IMG/VR virus record: IMGVR_UViG_3300037780_000197
Coordinates: 1 to 28,610 of that record
Origin: a virus
Lineage: Duplodnaviria > Caudoviricetes
Strand: one strand, 5' to 3'
DNA: 28,610 nucleotides
Shown: piece after piece, positions 2,711-17,460 of the stretch
How positions within the stretch are numbered: position 1 is the first letter of the stretch
Layout: each line of letters begins with the position of its first letter
Program-made: the position numbers and the translations under genes
Notes under the pieces: model-generated
The model's input: the letters and a program-made list of their open reading frames with translations, nothing else
What the model was told of the DNA's origin: nothing
The model's database searches: none

Positions 2711-3147
2711 TGGTTGAGGACCTGCCCGGCCTGCATGATGTCGTAATCGATCATCCGGTCGAACAGACCGTTCATCACCGCCTGGTTGGTCCGCGTCGAC
2801 CGCGCCAGCCCCGTGACCACGCGGTGCTCTTCGGCCACTCCGTTGATGGCGCGAATGTCCGCGCCCGTCATGCGGTGCAGCGTCAGCGTCCCGAAATGCT
2901 TCTCGCGAACCTTGCCCTCTTTCCGGGTCTTCAGCGTCACAGGCCGGGACAGGGTGATGGTGACCGAACCGTCGGCGTTCACGACGGCGCCCTTGGGCAG
3001 CTGGTCGCGAGGGTCGAGATCCTCGTCTATCACATCGTCCTCTGGCTTGGCGTCCTCGGCAATCACCGCATCGCTGGTTGCGATCGGCTCCTCGCGTTCG
3101 TCAATGACCGGCGCGTCATTGGTCAGATCGATCTGTGTCTTGCCCAT
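2665..3147 (-). CDS. Tail assembly chaperone (Mu gp41-like)
   Basis: Between tube and tape measure genes; LHRMTGADIRAI and LARSTRTNQAVMNGLFDRMIDYDI pattern; SD GAGGAG before ATG 3147. Confidence 0.85.
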   Translation of the reverse strand: MGKTQIDLTNDAPVIDEREEPIATSDAVIAEDAKPEDDVIDEDLDPRDQLPKGAVVNADGSVTITLSRPVTLKTRKEGKVREKHFGTLTLHRMTGADIRAINGVAEEHRVVTGLARSTRTNQAVMNGLFDRMIDYDIMQAGQVLNHFLASGRTITTPASG

Positions 3148-8655: not shown

Positions 8656-9117
8656 TGGCGCGTCTCCTTTCTTGTGGAGCGATTTCATTGTCAGGTTGGG
8701 ATCGTTGACGAGCGACGCGCGCAGGATCTGCGTGACCCGATGCGGCTTTTTCTCGGACGCCAGGAAAACCGGCGAGATGTAGGCGTAGGCACGGTCCTCG
8801 AGCAGCGCTTGGCCGGATGCGGTCCATTCCACCTGACCCCAGATACCGTCGTCTCGCGCTTCCATGGCGACGATCCAGCCGCGTGCCGGCGAGGGGTCGC
8901 CGTTTTCGCCCTTGATGTCGGTCGAGTGGTTCTCGTCGATCGGCAGTTTCTGCCCCGGTCGCATCGACGCCGCGATGATGGCGTCCATGTCGTCGACAGA
9001 GTAGGGACCGCGCCCGTCAGCGCCGTTGAAAGTGCCGGCCGGGATCAGCTGGACCCAGTCCGGCGCGGAGGCGGCCGTCGAAAGCGCGGTGGAATGAAGA
9101 CAGAGGAGCGTGTCCAT
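8098..9117 (-). CDS. Prohead protease/scaffold (Mu gpI-like)
   Basis: WVQLIPAG.F.G.DGRGP, LPIDENH, PARGWI, VEWT and YISPVF motifs plus a coiled-coil C-terminal half. Confidence 0.95.
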   Translation of the reverse strand: MDTLLCLHSTALSTAASAPDWVQLIPAGTFNGADGRGPYSVDDMDAIIAASMRPGQKLPIDENHSTDIKGENGDPSPARGWIVAMEARDDGIWGQVEWTASGQALLEDRAYAYISPVFLASEKKPHRVTQILRASLVNDPNLTMKSLHKKGDAPMDEAIAKALGLKPDADLAAATAAISGLQATLASMRKALALEDDADGDAVITALNARLKAKPEEGGKDEVIAGLEEQITSLNARLTSLTETTAKKSAIDVVDAAIAAGKLVPSLRDHYIARHMKDPHGVAKELDAFVSINAGGIAKPPVETEAGAVDAAGQEVIALMGLDPEAYAKTHKQIMKEYG

Positions 9118-9152
9118 GACGCCCTGTTTGGGCCATCGCTCCGCCTCTTGTC

Positions 9153-9174: not shown

Positions 9175-9675
9175 TCAGCGGGCCGCGCGTCGCAGGAACC
9201 CGTCAATAACGCGTTCAATCATGCGCTGATCGCCAGCATTGATGCCCAGATACGGCCGTGCGGGTATGTCGACCGAGGTTGGCCGCACCAGCGCATCGCC
9301 CATGCGGAACGCCAGACGTCCGCCGCCCTTGGCCTTGATCGTCCCGCCGCGCTGGTGGATGGCCGCATAGACCTTGTTGGAGCCTATCCTGACCGTGTCC
9401 CGCCCGGCAGCATGGGTCACGCTGTCGCGGAGGGCTCCGCTCTCGGTCAGGATACGCGCATTGCGCTTCGTCGCAGCGTAGACCGGGTTGAGCGCCGTCC
9501 AGGCGGCACCGTCAGGGTCGGTCTGCGTGACGAAACGGCGTTGGGTGGACCGCACCAGGCCGGTGCCGATCGCGTCCATGACAGGTTTGGTGTTGTCCAT
9601 TGCCCGCTCGAGCCGCGCGAAGCGCTCACGCACGGCGCGGTCCTCAAGTGTGACGGTCAGCGTGATCCCGGCCAT
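9175..9675 (-). CDS. Virion morphogenesis protein (Mu gpG/gp31-like)
   Basis: RRF..QTDPDG..W..L, IL..SG.LR.S, GSNKVYAAIHQ.GG and IPARPYLG motifs. Confidence 0.93.
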   Translation of the reverse strand: MAGITLTVTLEDRAVRERFARLERAMDNTKPVMDAIGTGLVRSTQRRFVTQTDPDGAAWTALNPVYAATKRNARILTESGALRDSVTHAAGRDTVRIGSNKVYAAIHQRGGTIKAKGGGRLAFRMGDALVRPTSVDIPARPYLGINAGDQRMIERVIDGFLRRAAR

Positions 9676-9677
9676 GT

Positions 9678-9706
9678 TTGACGTTTACCGCCGCCCCGCC
9701 TATCTT
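9678..9706 (+). promoter_or_regulatory. Sigma70-like promoter pointing back toward the MuF 3' end
   Basis: TTGACG (9678-9683), 17-bp spacer, TATCTT (9701-9706). Confidence 0.65.
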
Positions 9707-9710
9707 GTCG

Positions 9711-9775
9711 AGAGCGCGCCGAGCCATATTCGGATCGCCCTAGACGGGGTTTCTCTCCGGCCCCGCGGCGCGTCT
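9711..9775 (+). ncRNA. Candidate small structured RNA convergent on MuF
   Basis: Begins near the expected +1 of the promoter; outer stem AGA(G)CGCGCCG / CGGCGCGTCT and inner stem CGGGG (9745-9749) / CCCCG (9761-9765). Confidence 0.45.
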
Positions 9776-10853
9776 ATTCCCTCACCAACGGCCAGCCAAG
9801 CACCTTCGAGACCTGTTTCGGGCGCGCCCGATGCACGGTCGTGACCAGGAACTCGGCGTTGCGGGTGCGCTTGAAGCCGACCATGTGGGGCTTGCCGCCG
9901 ATCGTCACGATCGCCGACAGAAGGCCACGGGGCGAACGCCGAATGCCCGCATCCAGTGCACTGACTGCCGCCCGGGCATAGAAGCCGACGCCATGATCTC
10001 GCAGTGCCAGATGGTCCCGGATGGTCTGGGCGCTCACCCGGGCAAAGGCGCCGGGCTCCAGACCGAGCGCGCCGCGCAGTGTATCGCCGGGGTCGGCGAT
10101 CGGCAGCGACGCGCGGGCCGAGATCGACCCGTCCACGGCCGCCCGTTCGAAGGCATCCATCATCGAGCCCGTCGCCAGGCTTTCGCCGGGCCGGCCGCCC
10201 GACAGCCAGGCACGGCCGGGGTTGTAGTCGAAGCTCTGATCGACGCCGCGCGTGCCACCAGCCGGCTGATCGAGGTCGGGCGCGTGATCGGGTCGTGACT
10301 TGCCCTGGCGATCGAGATCGGCATCGTCGGCCGGGATGACGAAACAGCCGCAGCCGAACCCGTTGGGCGGATAAGCAACATCCCAGAACGGATCGTCGGC
10401 ACGGATCGTGAGCCCGTCCCAGGACAGGTGGTCGCGGCGAGGATGGACGGCGCCCGAATGGTTGTATTGCCAGTATGGCCAGACCGCGAGCGTCTCGGGC
10501 AACGTCAGCTGCGCATACCGCCCAGCGGCATAAGCGGTGCGCATGTTGGTCTCGTAGATTACCCGCGCCCGCCAGTCGCGATCGCCGGTGTGCTCCCAGC
10601 CATGTCTGGCGACGATGTCATCGAACGCAGCGCGAAACTCATCCAGCGTCGTGCCTTCGGCCAGCGCCTTGTCGATCTCGGCGCGGAAGTCGGCGACCAG
10701 CGCATCCGATGCCGCGCCGGCCACCGAAAAAGCATGGCTGTGTGCCGCGCCCTGGACGTCGAGCCAGCGTTCGGTCGGGACGTTGACCTTCTCCCGAAAG
10801 AAGTCGATTGCCTCCTCAAACGGCAGGTTCTCGACGCTTTCATCGACCGCCAT
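9774..10853 (-). CDS. MuF/gp30 head morphogenesis protein with C-terminal PBECR-like nuclease extension
   Basis: LPFEEAIDFFREK, IYETNMRTAYAAGRY, HPRRDHLSWDG, PPNGFGCGC and FDYNPG MuF motifs, followed by ~140 extra aa with a T..DH motif and VGFKRTRNAEFLVTTVHR. Confidence 0.9.
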   Translation of the reverse strand: MAVDESVENLPFEEAIDFFREKVNVPTERWLDVQGAAHSHAFSVAGAASDALVADFRAEIDKALAEGTTLDEFRAAFDDIVARHGWEHTGDRDWRARVIYETNMRTAYAAGRYAQLTLPETLAVWPYWQYNHSGAVHPRRDHLSWDGLTIRADDPFWDVAYPPNGFGCGCFVIPADDADLDRQGKSRPDHAPDLDQPAGGTRGVDQSFDYNPGRAWLSGGRPGESLATGSMMDAFERAAVDGSISARASLPIADPGDTLRGALGLEPGAFARVSAQTIRDHLALRDHGVGFYARAAVSALDAGIRRSPRGLLSAIVTIGGKPHMVGFKRTRNAEFLVTTVHRARPKQVSKVLGWPLVRE

Positions 10854-10979: not shown

Positions 10980-12577
10980 CGCCGTTTCGTTTCCAGATCG
11001 TCGACAAGGCTGGCCTGGCCGGCCAGATGTGCCAGCGCCATGCCGCGCGCCATTGCGATCGACAATTGCGTCGGGTCAAGATCGAGCGCGGCAAGCCCAT
11101 CGGCCGCCTCACGGAGCGTGCGGGCCTCCGTCAGAACCAAGCGCACTTCTTCGGTCAGCCCTGCCAGAGCACCGGCGGCGTCGCGCTGCAGGCGGTCGGA
11201 CAGGCGCGCCACATCTTCGTCGGCCGGATCGGCACGGTGGCGAGAAAGCAGCAGTCGGGCCGATGCATTGGCGATGGTGCCCGGTTCGGCCGCTCCGGGT
11301 GCGGGACCGCCGCCGATCAACTCGTCACTGTCGTCGGGCGCCGGAATGCCCATGCGATCGCGCATCCATCCGGCGGGCGCCGTCAGCCCGAGCGGCGCCA
11401 GCGCGGCGAAGGCCGTGCTGAACTCGCCGAGCGGCACTTCGTCAGGCCGTCCGATCCGGACCCGCGGATAGTGATCCTGGGGTCCGAAGTTGAAGGCAAT
11501 CAGATTGGGCACGAGCTGCATGTTGACCGTGCCCGAGATCATTTTGGCGTCCGACCGCTCGATGTCTTCCTGGACCAGGCGATGTTCCTTGGCGACGGCA
11601 TGGCCGCCCGAGACGGCGTCGGTGGTCGTCGTCTGGCCGAGCACGGCCTTCGAGATCTGTCGGTCGAACCAGTCGGCCCGCTTTTCGTAGAGATCCGATG
11701 TCGAGCTCTTGTCGGTGACGCTGACGAACTCGATCGACATGCCGTTGGGCACGATGGCCGCACAGTCGCCCGCGATCTGCGAGACGGCCCGCCACAGGAT
11801 CGCCTTGTCCTCCTCGGTGGCGTTGCCGTCGTAACGGCCGAGCCGGATAGGCTGACCGTAGTTCTGGCAGAAGATCGCCCAGTCCTTGAGCGTGAACTGC
11901 TTGTACATCCAGGCCCAGCTGGCGACGCGCGCCAGTCCAGATCGGACCGTAAGTCCCGACTTCGAAGGATGCCGGTGTATCAGGAACTTGTGCCCCGCCA
12001 GCGGCACGCCCGTCGCGCCCTCCCGGAGAAGCACGGTCTCGCCATCTTCGCGGTCGAACGTGAACCAGCGCTGCGGCCGGTAGAGGAACCGGCCCGGTTG
12101 CCAGCGACCATGCATGGTCACCCAGTCGATCTCCATGATCGAAAGACCCTTGCCGATGGCATCGAGCATGTCGAACAGCGCGTCTTCAAGAATGCCCTCT
12201 GCGATCCAGTCGCGGACGAATTGGGCGTGTTTCTTGTGCACCGGGCTGTCACTTGCCTCGGTCACCGTGATCGGCAGCTGTGCGACCGATCGTTTGCGCG
12301 TCGCCATCACGCCGGCATAATGCAGATCGCGCTCCTCGATGTCCTCGGCCAGTTCGAAGTAGAGTTCCGGATCACCGGTTGCAGCCGCGCGGTGGATCAT
12401 GGCGAGGCGCGCTGGTGTCAGCCCCTCGGCCGGATGGCCCGAAATCGGCTGGCGAACCGCTCCGACGGTCGGCGTCGCGACTTCGGTGGTAAGCGCTTTG
12501 GGCGGAACTGCCCTGCCGCCTGCATCGCGAGGGCTCTTGATACGCATCAGCTCGGTGAAGGTCTTGGCCATGGTCAC
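10976..12577 (-). CDS. Portal protein (Mu gp29/DUF935-like)
   Basis: GLTPARL, EERDLHY, DAIGKG.S..EI.W, KDWAIFCQNYGQPIRLGRY and QISKAVLGQT motifs; GTGA overlap with the terminase stop (alternative ATG 12571). Confidence 0.95.
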   Translation of the reverse strand: MTMAKTFTELMRIKSPRDAGGRAVPPKALTTEVATPTVGAVRQPISGHPAEGLTPARLAMIHRAAATGDPELYFELAEDIEERDLHYAGVMATRKRSVAQLPITVTEASDSPVHKKHAQFVRDWIAEGILEDALFDMLDAIGKGLSIMEIDWVTMHGRWQPGRFLYRPQRWFTFDREDGETVLLREGATGVPLAGHKFLIHRHPSKSGLTVRSGLARVASWAWMYKQFTLKDWAIFCQNYGQPIRLGRYDGNATEEDKAILWRAVSQIAGDCAAIVPNGMSIEFVSVTDKSSTSDLYEKRADWFDRQISKAVLGQTTTTDAVSGGHAVAKEHRLVQEDIERSDAKMISGTVNMQLVPNLIAFNFGPQDHYPRVRIGRPDEVPLGEFSTAFAALAPLGLTAPAGWMRDRMGIPAPDDSDELIGGGPAPGAAEPGTIANASARLLLSRHRADPADEDVARLSDRLQRDAAGALAGLTEEVRLVLTEARTLREAADGLAALDLDPTQLSIAMARGMALAHLAGQASLVDDLETKRR

Positions 12578-14229
12578 AAGCTCCCGCGAAGACCAGGGTC
12601 GATCGTGCGCGCGGGCCGGTCGCGGTCGTGCGAGGACTGGCGCCGGTTCTTGGCAACGCGATCGACCGCGCTCTCATATCCATACTCGAACTGCGTAGAC
12701 TGGCGCGATGCGAACCAGGCCAGCGCCCCCGCGATGGCCGTATCGCCGTGCCGGTCCAAACCGTCGCTGCCCTTGAACCGGAAATCCTCGGGCACGCGGA
12801 TGTAGCCGTTGGTGTATTGCAGCGCCTGGTGGTCGCGCAGCACGTCGTCGTCCTTCGGCACGACGATGTCCTCGTCCGCAAACGCCGATTGATAGGGCGG
12901 CATCTCGAGACGAAACCACTCCGGTGTGAACTTCACCTCATGGATGCGCTCGCCGAATTCTTGCGCTGCCACTTCGGCCAGATAGGCGCCGTTGCCGCCA
13001 GCATCGAGCGCGCCAGCCAGAAAGCGCGGCAGGCGGTGGATGACATAGAAGACGATCTGGCGCTGCTGCTCGAACGGGATGTTGCGCATCTCGACAATGA
13101 AGCGAACGCGCCGGATCAGATCGAGGCCAATGGCCGGCACGACGATCGCCGACACGTCGCCGGTGCGTGCGAAGTCCTGGCCGAATGCATGCTGCTCCTT
13201 CGGGTCGAGAGCAGTCAGGATGGGCGCCAGTTCTCGCTCGCACCAATCCCTGATGTCGGCCTCGCGGATCTGTTTGGGTGCGTTTTTGAAGTCGTCGTCG
13301 CGGATCAGTCGCAGAACCGGAATGCCGGCGACCATGACGTTTTCGATCTGCACCCGCGTCAGGGCCGCGCCTTCGGCCTCTGACGGGATGGCATCGAGCT
13401 CTTGGCGCATCGCCGCGACGCGTACACCGTAGCTCTTTCGAATGCGTGCCTCCCATCGGGCTTCGGCGTCAGCCGACCATTCTCGCTGGCGGATCAGGCA
13501 AACACGCCGGTAAAGGCCGTTCTCGACGGCTTTGGAGAACGGGATGTGATGCAGCGAGAAGGGAACCTTTTCCGCCTTGGCCTCCTGGATCAGCTCGTTG
13601 AAGGCGTTCAAGACGCCATTGTGTGTCGAGATCACGCGCACCTTTCCGCCCCAGATCAGAAGCGCATTCACCGCGTCGATCACCGCGCGCACATCGCGAT
13701 GGAAAGCGGCCTCGTCCACGACCACGATGCCCTGCAGGCCACGAATGTTGGCCGGGTTGGAAGACAGTGCTTCCACGCGGAAGCCCGAGGCGAAGCGGAC
13801 ACGATAGGCCGAGATGAATTTGGTCGACCCGTCTTCCTGCTCGTCCTCGAACAGGAACTCCTCGATGTTCACGAGCTCCTTGGCGACGATCTTGGCGAAG
13901 TGCGCCACATAGCCGATGAACTCGCGCCCCTTGTCCTTCGTGTCGCCGATGTAGAAGACGTTGTCGCCGCCTGCCGATCGCTTGGAGGCCGCCGTGATCG
14001 TGTCGTCGAGTGCCTCGGCATAGGTGATCCCTGTGCGCCGCCCCTTCTCCGCCGCCTTCATGTCCGACTTGTCCTCGATCCAGTCGAGCTGGTGAGCCAT
14101 GAGGATGCCGTCCGCAAGCGGATCGTGATCGTCCGGCAGGTCGCTGCCGCGCGTGAAGTCCGGACCGAGCGCAGCCGGGTCGCGAGACATGACGGGACGG
14201 GTATTGGGCACCGTGTTTGGCGTGTTCAT
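12574..14229 (-). CDS. terL: Terminase large subunit (Mu gp28-like)
   Basis: EKGRRTGITYAEA (Walker A variant), VVVDEAAFH (Walker B), ISTHNG, GQDFARTGD and HGDTAIA nuclease motifs; ATG 14229 overlaps the upstream stop. Confidence 0.95.
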   Translation of the reverse strand: MNTPNTVPNTRPVMSRDPAALGPDFTRGSDLPDDHDPLADGILMAHQLDWIEDKSDMKAAEKGRRTGITYAEALDDTITAASKRSAGGDNVFYIGDTKDKGREFIGYVAHFAKIVAKELVNIEEFLFEDEQEDGSTKFISAYRVRFASGFRVEALSSNPANIRGLQGIVVVDEAAFHRDVRAVIDAVNALLIWGGKVRVISTHNGVLNAFNELIQEAKAEKVPFSLHHIPFSKAVENGLYRRVCLIRQREWSADAEARWEARIRKSYGVRVAAMRQELDAIPSEAEGAALTRVQIENVMVAGIPVLRLIRDDDFKNAPKQIREADIRDWCERELAPILTALDPKEQHAFGQDFARTGDVSAIVVPAIGLDLIRRVRFIVEMRNIPFEQQRQIVFYVIHRLPRFLAGALDAGGNGAYLAEVAAQEFGERIHEVKFTPEWFRLEMPPYQSAFADEDIVVPKDDDVLRDHQALQYTNGYIRVPEDFRFKGSDGLDRHGDTAIAGALAWFASRQSTQFEYGYESAVDRVAKNRRQSSHDRDRPARTIDPGLRGSL

Positions 14230-14795
14230 GAACGCACCCCCAGGACCTGCCGGCGCAGTTCGGCGGCGCGCTCCTCCGACAGCCCGGCCTCGCGGACCAC
14301 GGCCTCTGTGACCTCTTCCACCTTGTCGGCCATTTCCTGCTCGAGCTTGAGACGCCGTGCCGACGAGACCGATTGTGCTTGGGCGAAAGATCGGGCCGCC
14401 ATGGCCAGTTCCTTGGCGTCTCGCGGCGAGAAGCCTTCTTCGCCGGCCCCTTGCAGAAGTTCGAAAACGAGCGTCTTGCCGAGTTCCGAGACCATGATTG
14501 TCAGATCGTCGGAGGCGTCCTCGTTCAATCGCTCGCCGAGCGCGGAAACGATGCGATGCGTCTCTTCGATCCGCCGGGTCGTTTGCGCCAGCATCATGGA
14601 GTACCGATTGAAGGCGGACTTCGAGATCGGGTCTATGCCGAGTTGGCGTAGCTGTTCGTTGAACTCGGCGAGGATCTCGGTCTGCAGCCGCTCCCGTCTG
14701 CGCAACTCCCCGACCGCCCAAGCGATCGCGGGCTGTGCCTCGTCGGGCAGCTGGTCGATCGTTGACAGGCGGCCCCTGCCACGGCGCGCGCTCAC
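14226..14795 (-). CDS. Mu gp27-like protein (DUF3486), probable terminase small subunit
   Basis: GRGRLSTIDQLP and ISKSAFNRY motifs; immediately upstream of terL. Confidence 0.88.
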   Translation of the reverse strand: MSARRGRGRLSTIDQLPDEAQPAIAWAVGELRRRERLQTEILAEFNEQLRQLGIDPISKSAFNRYSMMLAQTTRRIEETHRIVSALGERLNEDASDDLTIMVSELGKTLVFELLQGAGEEGFSPRDAKELAMAARSFAQAQSVSSARRLKLEQEMADKVEEVTEAVVREAGLSEERAAELRRQVLGVRS

Positions 14796-14800
14796 GGCGG

Positions 14801-15121
14801 CTAGCTCCGCGCCGGCGAAGGTCGCGCAACGCCATGCAGGACCGTGCGACGCTCGACGTGATCAAGGCCGGCCTCCGTCAGTTCCGCAACAATGGCGGTG
14901 CCGGCGCGGATAAGCTTGACCGCGCCGGCATTCTCTTCCAGCCATGTCAGCTGGTTGCGCGTGAAGTCTCGGCCGCGGTTGATGGCGAACTGCTGCAGCA
15001 CCGTGGTCAGCATCTTGTCGTTGAGCCTGTAGTCGTTCTGGTCGGCTAGCGCCTTCAGGATGATCAGGCGTGCCTCGGCCGCATAATGCTCGGCATATCC
15101 TTCGAATTGTTCGGCGTTCAT
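14801..15121 (-). CDS. Mu gp26-like winged-helix protein
   Basis: RLIILKAL, QLTWLEE, and LTEAGLDHV...GVARPS motifs; synteny. Confidence 0.82.
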   Translation of the reverse strand: MNAEQFEGYAEHYAAEARLIILKALADQNDYRLNDKMLTTVLQQFAINRGRDFTRNQLTWLEENAGAVKLIRAGTAIVAELTEAGLDHVERRTVLHGVARPSPARS

Positions 15122-16459: not shown

Positions 16460-17460
16460 CGGATGCGCCCCTTTCCGGCAATGAGTGAACGGGCACCAAG
16501 GCCCACCTCGTCGCGATAGCGCCAACCCAGCCAGATCAGGGCGACCACAATGACCAGCAGACCGCCCCAGACCAGCCAGTCACCATAGCCGGTCACGTCA
16601 GCGCCGGTGGCCGTATCCGCACCGCCTGCCGCGCTCGTCGCGCCGCCGGAAACCGTGGCGCGTCCAGCCCCGCGCCGCAGATCCATCACGCGCTGGATCT
16701 GGTCGCGCGTTGCCCGACCAAGCACGCCGTCATTGGTGAGATTGGGGTGCTCGAACTGGAACGCCTTGACCGCTTTGCGGAAGTCCTTTGACGAACGCAG
16801 CATCCCGGCACTGTGACGACCGGCCGGTTTCCAGAAACCGAGCGTCTCGAGCCAGCGTGCCGCTTCAAGGAGATCGTCGTCATCAAGCCGCCAGGCCGGC
16901 AGCTTCTCGACCGCCGCGGCAACCGTCACGGTTTTGTCCGCTCCTTTAAGCCACTTCGGCCAGATGTTGTGCTCCATTATGACGGAGCCCTCCTGGCGCC
17001 GTCGAACCAGACCGGCCAGCCGCCGCCCGCCGGCCTTGGTCGCCGTGACCCGGAAACGCCGGGCTGCTTCGGCGATGTTTCCGGCCTTCAAGTGCCGCGC
17101 CCAGCTCCACTTCAGCGAGCCCGGACCGGCATTGAAGCTCATGTCCATGCCGGAGGACATTGCGTGCGGCGAAACCGAAGCATTGGCATTCTCGAAAAAG
17201 CGCCAGACGGGCGGGCCATACTCATCGTCGATCAGCAACTGCTTGACCGCGTAGATTTCGGCGTCGGTCATGGTGGCACCAGGGCCGAACCGTTGGCCCT
17301 TTCGATTGTCGGCCCACCAGCGCTTGAACGCGTGCGATCGCATGGTGAAGCCCATGCCGATGGTCGGCACACCGATCGGGTCGCGGTACCAGCGATTGAC
17401 CTTGCCCTCATTGCCGGCAAGCCAGGGGATGAGACGGAGGTCGTAAACGAGATTGGACAT
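16456..17460 (-). CDS. Endolysin: GH24-like lysozyme + peptidoglycan-binding domain + C-terminal TM helix
   Basis: EG......Y.DP.G.PTIG.G catalytic motif, GLVRRRQE, AVKAFQ..HP.L..DG..G..T PG-binding motif, WLVWGGLLVIVVALIWLGW. Confidence 0.9.
   Translation of the reverse strand: MSNLVYDLRLIPWLAGNEGKVNRWYRDPIGVPTIGMGFTMRSHAFKRWWADNRKGQRFGPGATMTDAEIYAVKQLLIDDEYGPPVWRFFENANASVSPHAMSSGMDMSFNAGPGSLKWSWARHLKAGNIAEAARRFRVTATKAGGRRLAGLVRRRQEGSVIMEHNIWPKWLKGADKTVTVAAAVEKLPAWRLDDDDLLEAARWLETLGFWKPAGRHSAGMLRSSKDFRKAVKAFQFEHPNLTNDGVLGRATRDQIQRVMDLRRGAGRATVSGGATSAAGGADTATGADVTGYGDWLVWGGLLVIVVALIWLGWRYRDEVGLGARSLIAGKGRIR

Follow-up and report, generated by a model that had tools for sequence, protein, structure and literature searches.

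A conserved RNA element convergent to muF genes is a candidate RNA immunity gene for virion-borne PBECR nucleases

In the systems described so far, it is a protein that gives immunity to a polymorphic toxin. In type III toxin–antitoxin systems (ToxIN, CptIN, TenpIN), the antitoxin is an RNA that is encoded upstream of the toxin, co-transcribed with it and separated from it by a terminator, and its tandem repeats are processed to monomers. These antitoxins adopt pseudoknot-type folds, each RNA binds and blocks the RNase for which it is specific, and the toxins process their own RNA. The type I systems txpA/RatA and bsrG/SR4 have an antitoxin RNA that is 3'-convergent to the toxin gene. Phages also use tRNAs against tRNA-cutting defences. 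Allo-tRNAs have been reported near toxin–antitoxin genes (Mukai et al., PMC5389517).

For MuF proteins, Jamet et al. (2017, PMC5576092) counted a small downstream ORF beside 89.4% of 191 MuF toxin genes; the part of that paper covered here leaves the C-terminal extensions of proteobacterial MuF proteins unexplained and makes no mention of an RNA beside MuF. Likewise, the covered parts of PMC5512222 and of bioRxiv 10.64898/2026.08.28.747851 link no RNA to PBECR domains, and the word 'noncoding' occurs zero times in the covered text of the preprint. Our literature search found no description of an RNA beside MuF or PBECR genes; it covered part of the PMC10690425 supplements, and a matching unnamed motif may be contained in the rest of these or in the PMC5737381 supplement. 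The locus analyzed here resembles the MuF polymorphic toxins of PMC5576092 in having a MuF domain encoded after the portal, a variable C-terminal domain and a temperate phage as carrier, but it differs in that a convergent non-coding element takes the place of the ORF. We regard the RNA element as real, widespread and, it appears, not described before; its most likely role is that of an RNA immunity gene directed at PBECR nucleases carried in the virion.

The muF gene and its C-terminal domain

The window, meaning the whole 28,610-nt stretch of DNA that was analyzed, is a Mu-like transposable phage with its genes on the minus strand, a set comprising transposase, MuB, GemA, Mor, lysozyme, portal, MuF, G, protease I, major head protein T and sheath. 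An exact-pattern scan of viral contigs returned two identical copies of the window and nothing else. Since a near-identical copy (L207) is found in a genome that belongs to the same family as a Rhizobium ruizarguesonis genome, the phage host likely belongs to the Rhizobiaceae. A 763-aa ORF (12574–14865, minus strand) occupies the terminase position before the portal, with no Pfam match at E 0.1. Two other motifs occur at chance level, namely a terminator-like hairpin overlapping the start of protease gene I (9106–9124, minus strand) and a promoter-like site inside the lysozyme gene (16976–17005, minus strand). The genes of interest are as follows.

9774–10853, minus strand: muF, minor head/DNA pilot protein of 359 aa, long form, with a PF04233 match, between portal and G
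9777–10190, minus strand: C-terminal BECR-fold (PBECR-like) predicted RNase domain, aa 222–359, from structure comparison, with His281/Thr339
9175–9675, minus strand: gene G (virion morphogenesis, Phage_tail_S; Pfam PF05069, E 1.6e-37), the far edge of the gap

The Phage_Mu_F domain (PF04233) spans aa 56–173 of MuF (E 2e-14) and, with its position after the portal and an exchangeable C-terminal domain, the protein has the layout of a polymorphic toxin. The initial annotation of this DNA assigned MuF ~140 aa beyond an FDYNPG motif and a PBECR-like toxin domain. We count 146 aa beyond that motif, and the peptide quoted as the end of MuF proved not to be terminal, as 17 residues come after it. 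What kind of domain do these residues form? An AF2 model built from a seven-sequence alignment (pLDDT 92.5) contains helices H54–64 and H68–81 followed by strands, which fits the BECR fold, in which a sheet of 4–5 strands comes after an N-terminal helix. A VIA search with the domain placed the RelE-like BrnT on top (Z 6.4), followed by CdiA-CT NC101 (5.9), a Salmonella TA toxin (5.9), two more CdiA toxins (4.7 and 4.5, the latter being CdiA-CT Kp342) and colicin D (4.4). These top six rows are RNase toxins or toxin complexes and, while Z values of 4.4–6.4 are modest, the list is coherent. Comparison against the Atlas gave TM values of 0.64–0.76 to the PBECR2, PBECR3 and MuF_C clusters. The PBECR-like assignment is thus borne out by VIA, the Atlas and the AF2 model. 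Foldseek against pdb gave zero matches at E ≤0.001. The Pfam models of PBECR1–5 and MuF_C gave zero matches to the domain, and neighboring domain clusters weakly match PBECR3 or MuF_C.

The catalytic pattern of BECR nucleases, a helix His with a Ser or Thr in the last strand, is found here as His281 and Thr339; His281 is present in 63 of 88 homologs, and position 339 is Ser or Thr in 81 of 88. Homologs were retrieved chiefly by an alignment query (84 matches), as compared with 1 and 4 matches for single-sequence queries. The closest solved structures include several tRNases (PMC9086364), and the domain would be an active toxic RNase, probably a tRNase. Iyer et al. (PMC5512222) suggested mRNA or crRNA, in place of tRNA, as the possible target of PBECRs, and called the phage Mu domain inactive.

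The convergent promoter motif and the tRNA-like element

The muF–G gap (9676–9773) is 98 nt long and contains, or abuts, the following features.

9678–9706, plus strand: sigma70-like promoter motif convergent to muF, with –35 TTGACG (9678–9683), a 17-nt spacer and –10 TATCTT (9701–9706)
9712–9776, plus strand: predicted small tRNA-like RNA of ~62–65 nt with inferred ends, a comparative fold with no anticodon arm
9715–9721 with 9766–9772, plus strand: acceptor-like closing stem, 7 bp, CGCGCCG/CGGCGCG, with two double-changed pairs and one G-U change among 7 loci
9723–9724 with 9737–9738, plus strand: mini D-like arm (span 9723–9738), whose loop contains GGA (9732–9734)
9745–9749 with 9761–9765, plus strand: T-like arm, 5 bp, CGGGG/CCCCG, abutting the 3' acceptor strand
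9732–9734 (GGA) with 9756–9758 (UCC), plus strand: predicted loop–loop pairing, tRNA elbow-like, in which pair 9732–9758 covaries

No immunity ORF directly follows muF in the window, and no sense ORF of at least 20 aa is closed inside the gap, in agreement with the earlier description of a gap of ~100 nt to G without an immunity ORF. The near-consensus plus-strand promoter described there (TTGACG-N17-TATCTT) is present and conserved across relatives, and an antisense promoter lies at the same position and in the same orientation in 23 of the 27 loci of the window's domain cluster. The motif occurs once in 2.5 kb where 0.2 are expected, and promoter-like sites in 20 kb number two, including this one, against 2.2 expected from shuffles. 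As a single sequence the element folds with z –0.39, and 64 of 200 shuffles fold equally well. The window alone proves nothing, because the fold and the promoter are each at chance level there, and the evidence for the element is comparative.

When the named structure is imposed on the 7 loci of the window's RNA subtype, 96% of cells pair and four pairs are double-changed, as compared with 36–50% pairing for slid controls. A sister subtype of 16 loci has an extra middle arm and nine double-changed pairs, which include the D-like stem and a loop–loop pair of its own; the covariation counts for both sets refer to sequences and not to independent events. The second pair of the T-like arm is G-C in 4/7 loci, A-U in 2/7 and U-A in 1/7, and two U-G pairs lie beyond the 5 bp. 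The mini D-like arm is invariant in the 7 window-subtype loci and changes from G-C to C-G in 2/16 sister-subtype loci. The elbow-like pair 9732–9758 is G-C in five of the seven loci and C-G in two (L243 and L244, possibly one event), and these two were fetched after the pair had been written down, while it was still invariant. The acceptor-like and T-like stems stack to 12 bp, and an outer stem extension reaches into the muF stop codon (9774–9776). The 7-bp and abutting 5-bp stems first drawn from the window therefore hold and covary; the outer AGA/TCT pairs drawn with them are not conserved. RNAalifold prefers a local pairing of columns 17–18 with 25–26, which was rejected since it is broken in 2/7 sequences that keep the loop–loop pair.

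A covariance model of the sister subtype, built without the window sequence, finds a sole match in the window at 9708–9780 on the plus strand (22.2 bits, E 0.002) and also recovers five further loci of the cluster and L009 at the expected place. It returns one match per locus there, consistent with the single copy of the element in the 98-nt gap, and it misses most other RNA classes described below. Is the element a tRNA gene? ARAGORN predicts none in the window and none in 60 loci, Rfam at E up to 10 on 9500–10000 gives two chance matches and nothing else, and at the gathering level two sets of 20 loci give none at the element, the sole match being a regular tRNA that lies 1.9 kb from it in L210. 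A cloverleaf with an anticodon arm (ARAGORN, RF00005) is thus not seen, and what is present, at the level of secondary structure, is the 7+5 bp acceptor/T stack with a D-loop/T-loop contact.

Which strand carries the signal? The complement of the element is also foldable (z –0.5 to –1.0), which would fit a sense-strand or DNA signal for processing or translation of the F–G late mRNA. The same alternative extends to coding capacity, in the form of a small peptide or an antisense-encoded immunity protein: a 155-aa plus-strand ORF begins at 9831, and many gaps in other clusters contain open frames of 35–60 aa. However, we place the fold on the promoter strand because G-U cells outnumber A-C cells there by 18:3 and 13:1 in the two counts made. 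Moreover, the antisense ORF was rejected as an immunity gene, as its start, frame and length vary across 21 loci and one locus is without any, and the window's gap has no sense ORF. We consider a sense-strand signal or an encoded peptide very unlikely.

Contigs from RNA libraries (four runs, at most three samples from two studies) cover the region in a patchy way, at a depth of ~2–8 that is alike over G, gap and muF; the element is covered in two of the four runs, by contigs that are strandless and carry no RNA ends.

Distribution of the element and its link to the nuclease domain

A survey of MuF loci began with 178 loci fetched by the MuF N-terminal domain (the best 80 of 182 and the best 80 of 556 relatives), of which 172 have the stop inside the locus and 142 are distinct. 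Loci from the C-terminal alignment were then added, and removal of near-copies and of loci with <200 nt downstream gave a final set of 157. Promoters were scored with a rough sigma70 matrix and a cut-off of 4.5 picked after the data had been seen. With these settings, an antisense promoter 55–135 nt from the stop is found in 75 of 98 BECR-type loci (sense strand 34/98), in 1/13 loci with an ADP-ribosyltransferase (ART) domain, in 4/39 with a short MuF, in 2/2 of CdiA_C type and in 0/5 others. Downstream of homologous muF genes, the check proposed by the initial annotation, both promoter and fold proved to be conserved and covarying. Short MuF genes overlap or nearly touch G, with a gap of ≤17 nt in 33 of the 36 loci where G was located.

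What occupies the slot in the other classes? An ORF of 44–107 aa follows muF in 12 of 13 ART loci and in none of seven tested in the window's cluster; the ART-type relatives match the small downstream ORF of PMC5576092, as far as that paper was covered. These unannotated ORFs (L006, L045, L062, L115, L127, L128, L131 and others) are candidate immunity proteins. Open frames of at least 35 aa, counted without regard to conservation, are present in 28 of 70 BECR loci whose gap is long or of unmeasured length, and in L155, L163, L157 and L142 a BECR-type MuF is followed by an ORF of 68–82 aa. L155 and L163 lack both the His and the promoter yet have the ORF, so a protein partner may be in use, or may have been acquired, in some BECR MuF lineages. 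A CdiA-like locus, L236, has a small immunity-like ORF in the same slot, and a CdiA_C search in 301 genomes found a single large CdiA-like gene, with a 129-aa ORF after it.

The status of the catalytic His was read by eye from alignments, with 15 loci without a located G excluded. A gap of at least 60 nt is present in 64 of 67 loci that keep the His and in 9 of 16 that do not (Fisher p 2e-4, a value that overstates independence because of kinship). The gapless loci without His span three domain clusters (L101, L103, L211; L087, L088, L173; L121). Within the window's cluster, the five loci without His form one nested, long-branched clade and are therefore counted as one loss. Among the nine loci that lack the His and keep the gap, several have Arg or Lys at the position with promoter and fold kept (L129, L174, L154, L162, L169), and L155 and L163 are without a promoter and have an ORF of 82 aa. 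Seven loci fetched later follow the same division, five having His and element and two having neither His nor gap (a 4-nt overlap, –4).

Named phages can be placed on the same axis. A gap is missing, and no His is visible, in Mu, D3112, phiSHP3 and JBD25; YPCBV-1 combines a short MuF with a gap of 3 nt. Phage B3 keeps the His and has a 123-nt gap, promoter and closed stem; promoter and fold are both present in RR1-B, and Lsp-JY19 has a gap in which the rough matrix detects no promoter. In B3 (L228:2558–2680), the annotated 32-aa ORF34 between F and G overlaps the element with its convergent promoter and closed stem, and this ORF may have been miscalled as a gene. The counter-cases are L136 and L146, which keep the His without a gap, and a third gapless locus with His, L138, in which the muF frame reads on into the element (around 3000–3100) through decay or assembly error. 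In L184 (1410–1483, minus strand) the His is kept, the gap is ~24 nt shorter and the –10 box and 5' stem are lost, again by decay or assembly error. Overall, the element is essentially absent beside short MuF and ART MuF and is lost with most His-less domains, so that the refuting pattern named at the outset, equal presence beside toxin-less MuF, did not appear.

These distributions bear on two further explanations. The element could be unrelated to MuF, parked in the gap, and serve as a decoy for host nucleases that cut anticodons or acceptor stems (PrrC, RloC, PARIS-type), which would account for the tRNA shape and would fit the use of phage tRNAs against tRNA-cutting defences. We regard it as extremely improbable, as such a decoy should not be missing beside short MuF and ART MuF or vanish together with the His, and the window subtype has no anticodon arm. 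Alternatively, the RNA could be the partner of the nuclease, either a substrate matured by it or a cofactor in a head ribonucleoprotein that acts on the host, such as by mimicking a tRNA. A tie to the catalytic His would be just as expected of a substrate or cofactor, and type III toxins do process their own RNA. However, the slot is that of the immunity-like ORF in ART MuF and in CdiA-like L236, and a sigma70 promoter uncoupled from the late operon would suggest early or constitutive synthesis. We judge a partner role unlikely.

The RNAs fall into classes. For 59 loci chosen for having promoter and gap, a closing stem of at least 7 bp is present in 38 of 43 elements not linked to PBECR2 (5.7 expected) and in 2 of 16 that are. 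The PBECR2-linked RNA instead consists of two hairpins with loops complementary over 6–9 nt, a kissing loop of pseudoknot type, and all six counted pairs are double-changed in 12 loci picked for alignment from 17 examined. Loci with this RNA are L122 (2971–3064, minus strand), L141, L149, L165, L170, L171, L172, L076, L096, L175 and others. The nearest neighbor of an RNA lies in the same domain class in 56 of 59 cases, the partial correlation of the RNA is 0.29 with the domain, 0.14 with G and 0.20 with MuF-N, and the window's RNA subtype (7 loci) is confined to one domain clade. In these alignments the RNA type follows the nuclease subfamily, and adjacency or linkage can explain part of this. 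Four elements (L083, L086, L148, L151) contain canonical T-arm text, which suggests that the cloverleaf-like classes had a tRNA origin; L219 and L221 are also canonical or near-canonical, and ARAGORN and Rfam are silent on the T-arm-bearing elements where run.

For PBECR3, 9 of 13 matches have enough downstream DNA, and all nine show an antisense promoter motif and a folded region, a count made with no composition control. C-terminal PBECR3 domains (L216–L223, L226), one of them in a protein of >600 aa, have antisense promoter motifs and multi-stem folds. In MuF proteins with a CdiA_C-like domain, another nuclease fold, L017 (3745–3860, minus strand) and L019 (3649–3735, minus strand) each combine a strong convergent promoter with a long closed stem whose end coincides with the stop, and the L017 element contains a T-loop-like GGTTCGA. 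Generality for the CdiA_C fold extends to these two loci only.

The initial annotation had left two routes open, a structural decoy or antisense transcription running into the toxin-coding region. In the second, which is type I-like, run-on into the muF 3' end would silence leaky toxin by pairing or polymerase collision, and the fold would be the stable processed 5' leader. The convergent orientation fits this, as does a 3' end that abuts or overlaps the stop. There is also no intrinsic terminator on the plus strand between 9000 and 11500, and the element ends in a short pyrimidine tail (2–7 T per 10 nt among 17 loci). However, silencing of this kind needs no loop–loop pairing, yet the pairing covaries; ART MuF genes, with an equal need of leak control, have no such promoter (1/13); and the RNA fold type follows the nuclease subfamily. 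Antisense silencing would also be no help against a protein delivered by the virion. We rate antisense control as unlikely, and the decoy is better supported by the comparisons because the loop–loop pairing is conserved and the RNA fold type follows the nuclease subfamily.

Proposed function and comparison with known systems

At the sequence level, the comparisons show a conserved, strand-specific and covarying predicted structure behind a promoter motif, located in the immunity slot and tied to intact-looking BECR domains. We hypothesize, with slightly more than even credence, that the RNA is a substrate-mimic antitoxin that binds and blocks the RNase domain of its own MuF and replaces a protein immunity gene. 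In this model, the RNase domain, probably a tRNase, would be packaged in the head and delivered along with the DNA. Host sigma70 polymerase would transcribe the RNA both from the prophage and from incoming DNA and, with the promoter pointing away from the late genes, these would stay off. The 12-bp acceptor/T stack and the elbow-like pairing would present the outer shape of a tRNA, to be bound as a decoy that has neither an anticodon arm nor a regular CCA end. Such a translation-free antidote would suit a toxin directed against translation. Protection would extend to lysogens and to cells with a productive infection, but not to cells that received the protein and destroyed or silenced the DNA.

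Against the antitoxin reading stand the three gapless loci with His, the exceptions L184 and Lsp-JY19, the nine His-less loci that keep a gap, the open frames in 28 of 70 BECR loci, the modest Z values (best 6.4) with the empty Foldseek search, and the mRNA or crRNA targets suggested in PMC5512222. A single origin for all RNA classes is unsupported, as the sister-subtype model misses most of the other classes. A broader proposal, which we advance tentatively and hold at somewhat less than even, is that virion-borne RNases of several folds (PBECR subfamilies, MuF_C and possibly the CdiA_C type) use widespread convergent RNA immunity genes, tRNA-derived or kissing-loop and each matched to its nuclease, so that an injected nuclease would poison cells that destroy the phage DNA and the antidote would come only from a surviving genome.

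An RNA in the immunity slot would explain many proteobacterial long MuF genes without an immunity ORF and would give a first functional handle on PBECR domains. The analysis defines several new structured RNA families with covariation and would add a tRNA-mimic route to the known RNA antitoxins. What MuF extensions do once injected, a long-standing question, becomes directly testable, and cultured phages provide natural pairs, B3 and RR1-B with the element and Mu, D3112, JBD25 and phiSHP3 without it.

How does the element compare with described systems? Measured against the PBECR domains of PMC5512222 and bioRxiv 10.64898/2026.08.28.747851, as far as those sources were covered, the window's domain differs in fitting no Pfam PBECR model. 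The proposed logic, a folded RNA blocking its RNase, is that of type III systems and of AbiF with its RNA, and the PBECR2-linked RNA is likewise of pseudoknot type. In contrast to type III, the RNA here is a single copy rather than a tandem repeat, and it lies downstream in convergent orientation with its own promoter rather than upstream in one transcript with the toxin. Moreover, it is tRNA-shaped, and the toxin is fused to a virion protein and has a different fold. A convergent promoter just past the toxin stop is shared with the type I systems txpA/RatA and bsrG/SR4, but the toxin here is the 359-aa product of an operon gene rather than a membrane peptide of <60 aa, and the RNA has a conserved predicted tertiary pairing and no terminator of its own was seen. 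With tRNA mimics (the tRNA-like domain of tmRNA, YrlA and allo-tRNAs) the element has in common the 12-bp acceptor/T stack, the D/T-loop contact and the lack of a standard anticodon arm; it differs in its ~62-nt size, in having no Rfam or ARAGORN match and in its fixed place against one nuclease class. The element would thus work like a type III antitoxin with a layout that is not type III; its geometry is that of type I although the toxin is not, it falls outside the tRNA genes, and a directly binding antitoxin is the function that we consider marginally more probable than its absence.
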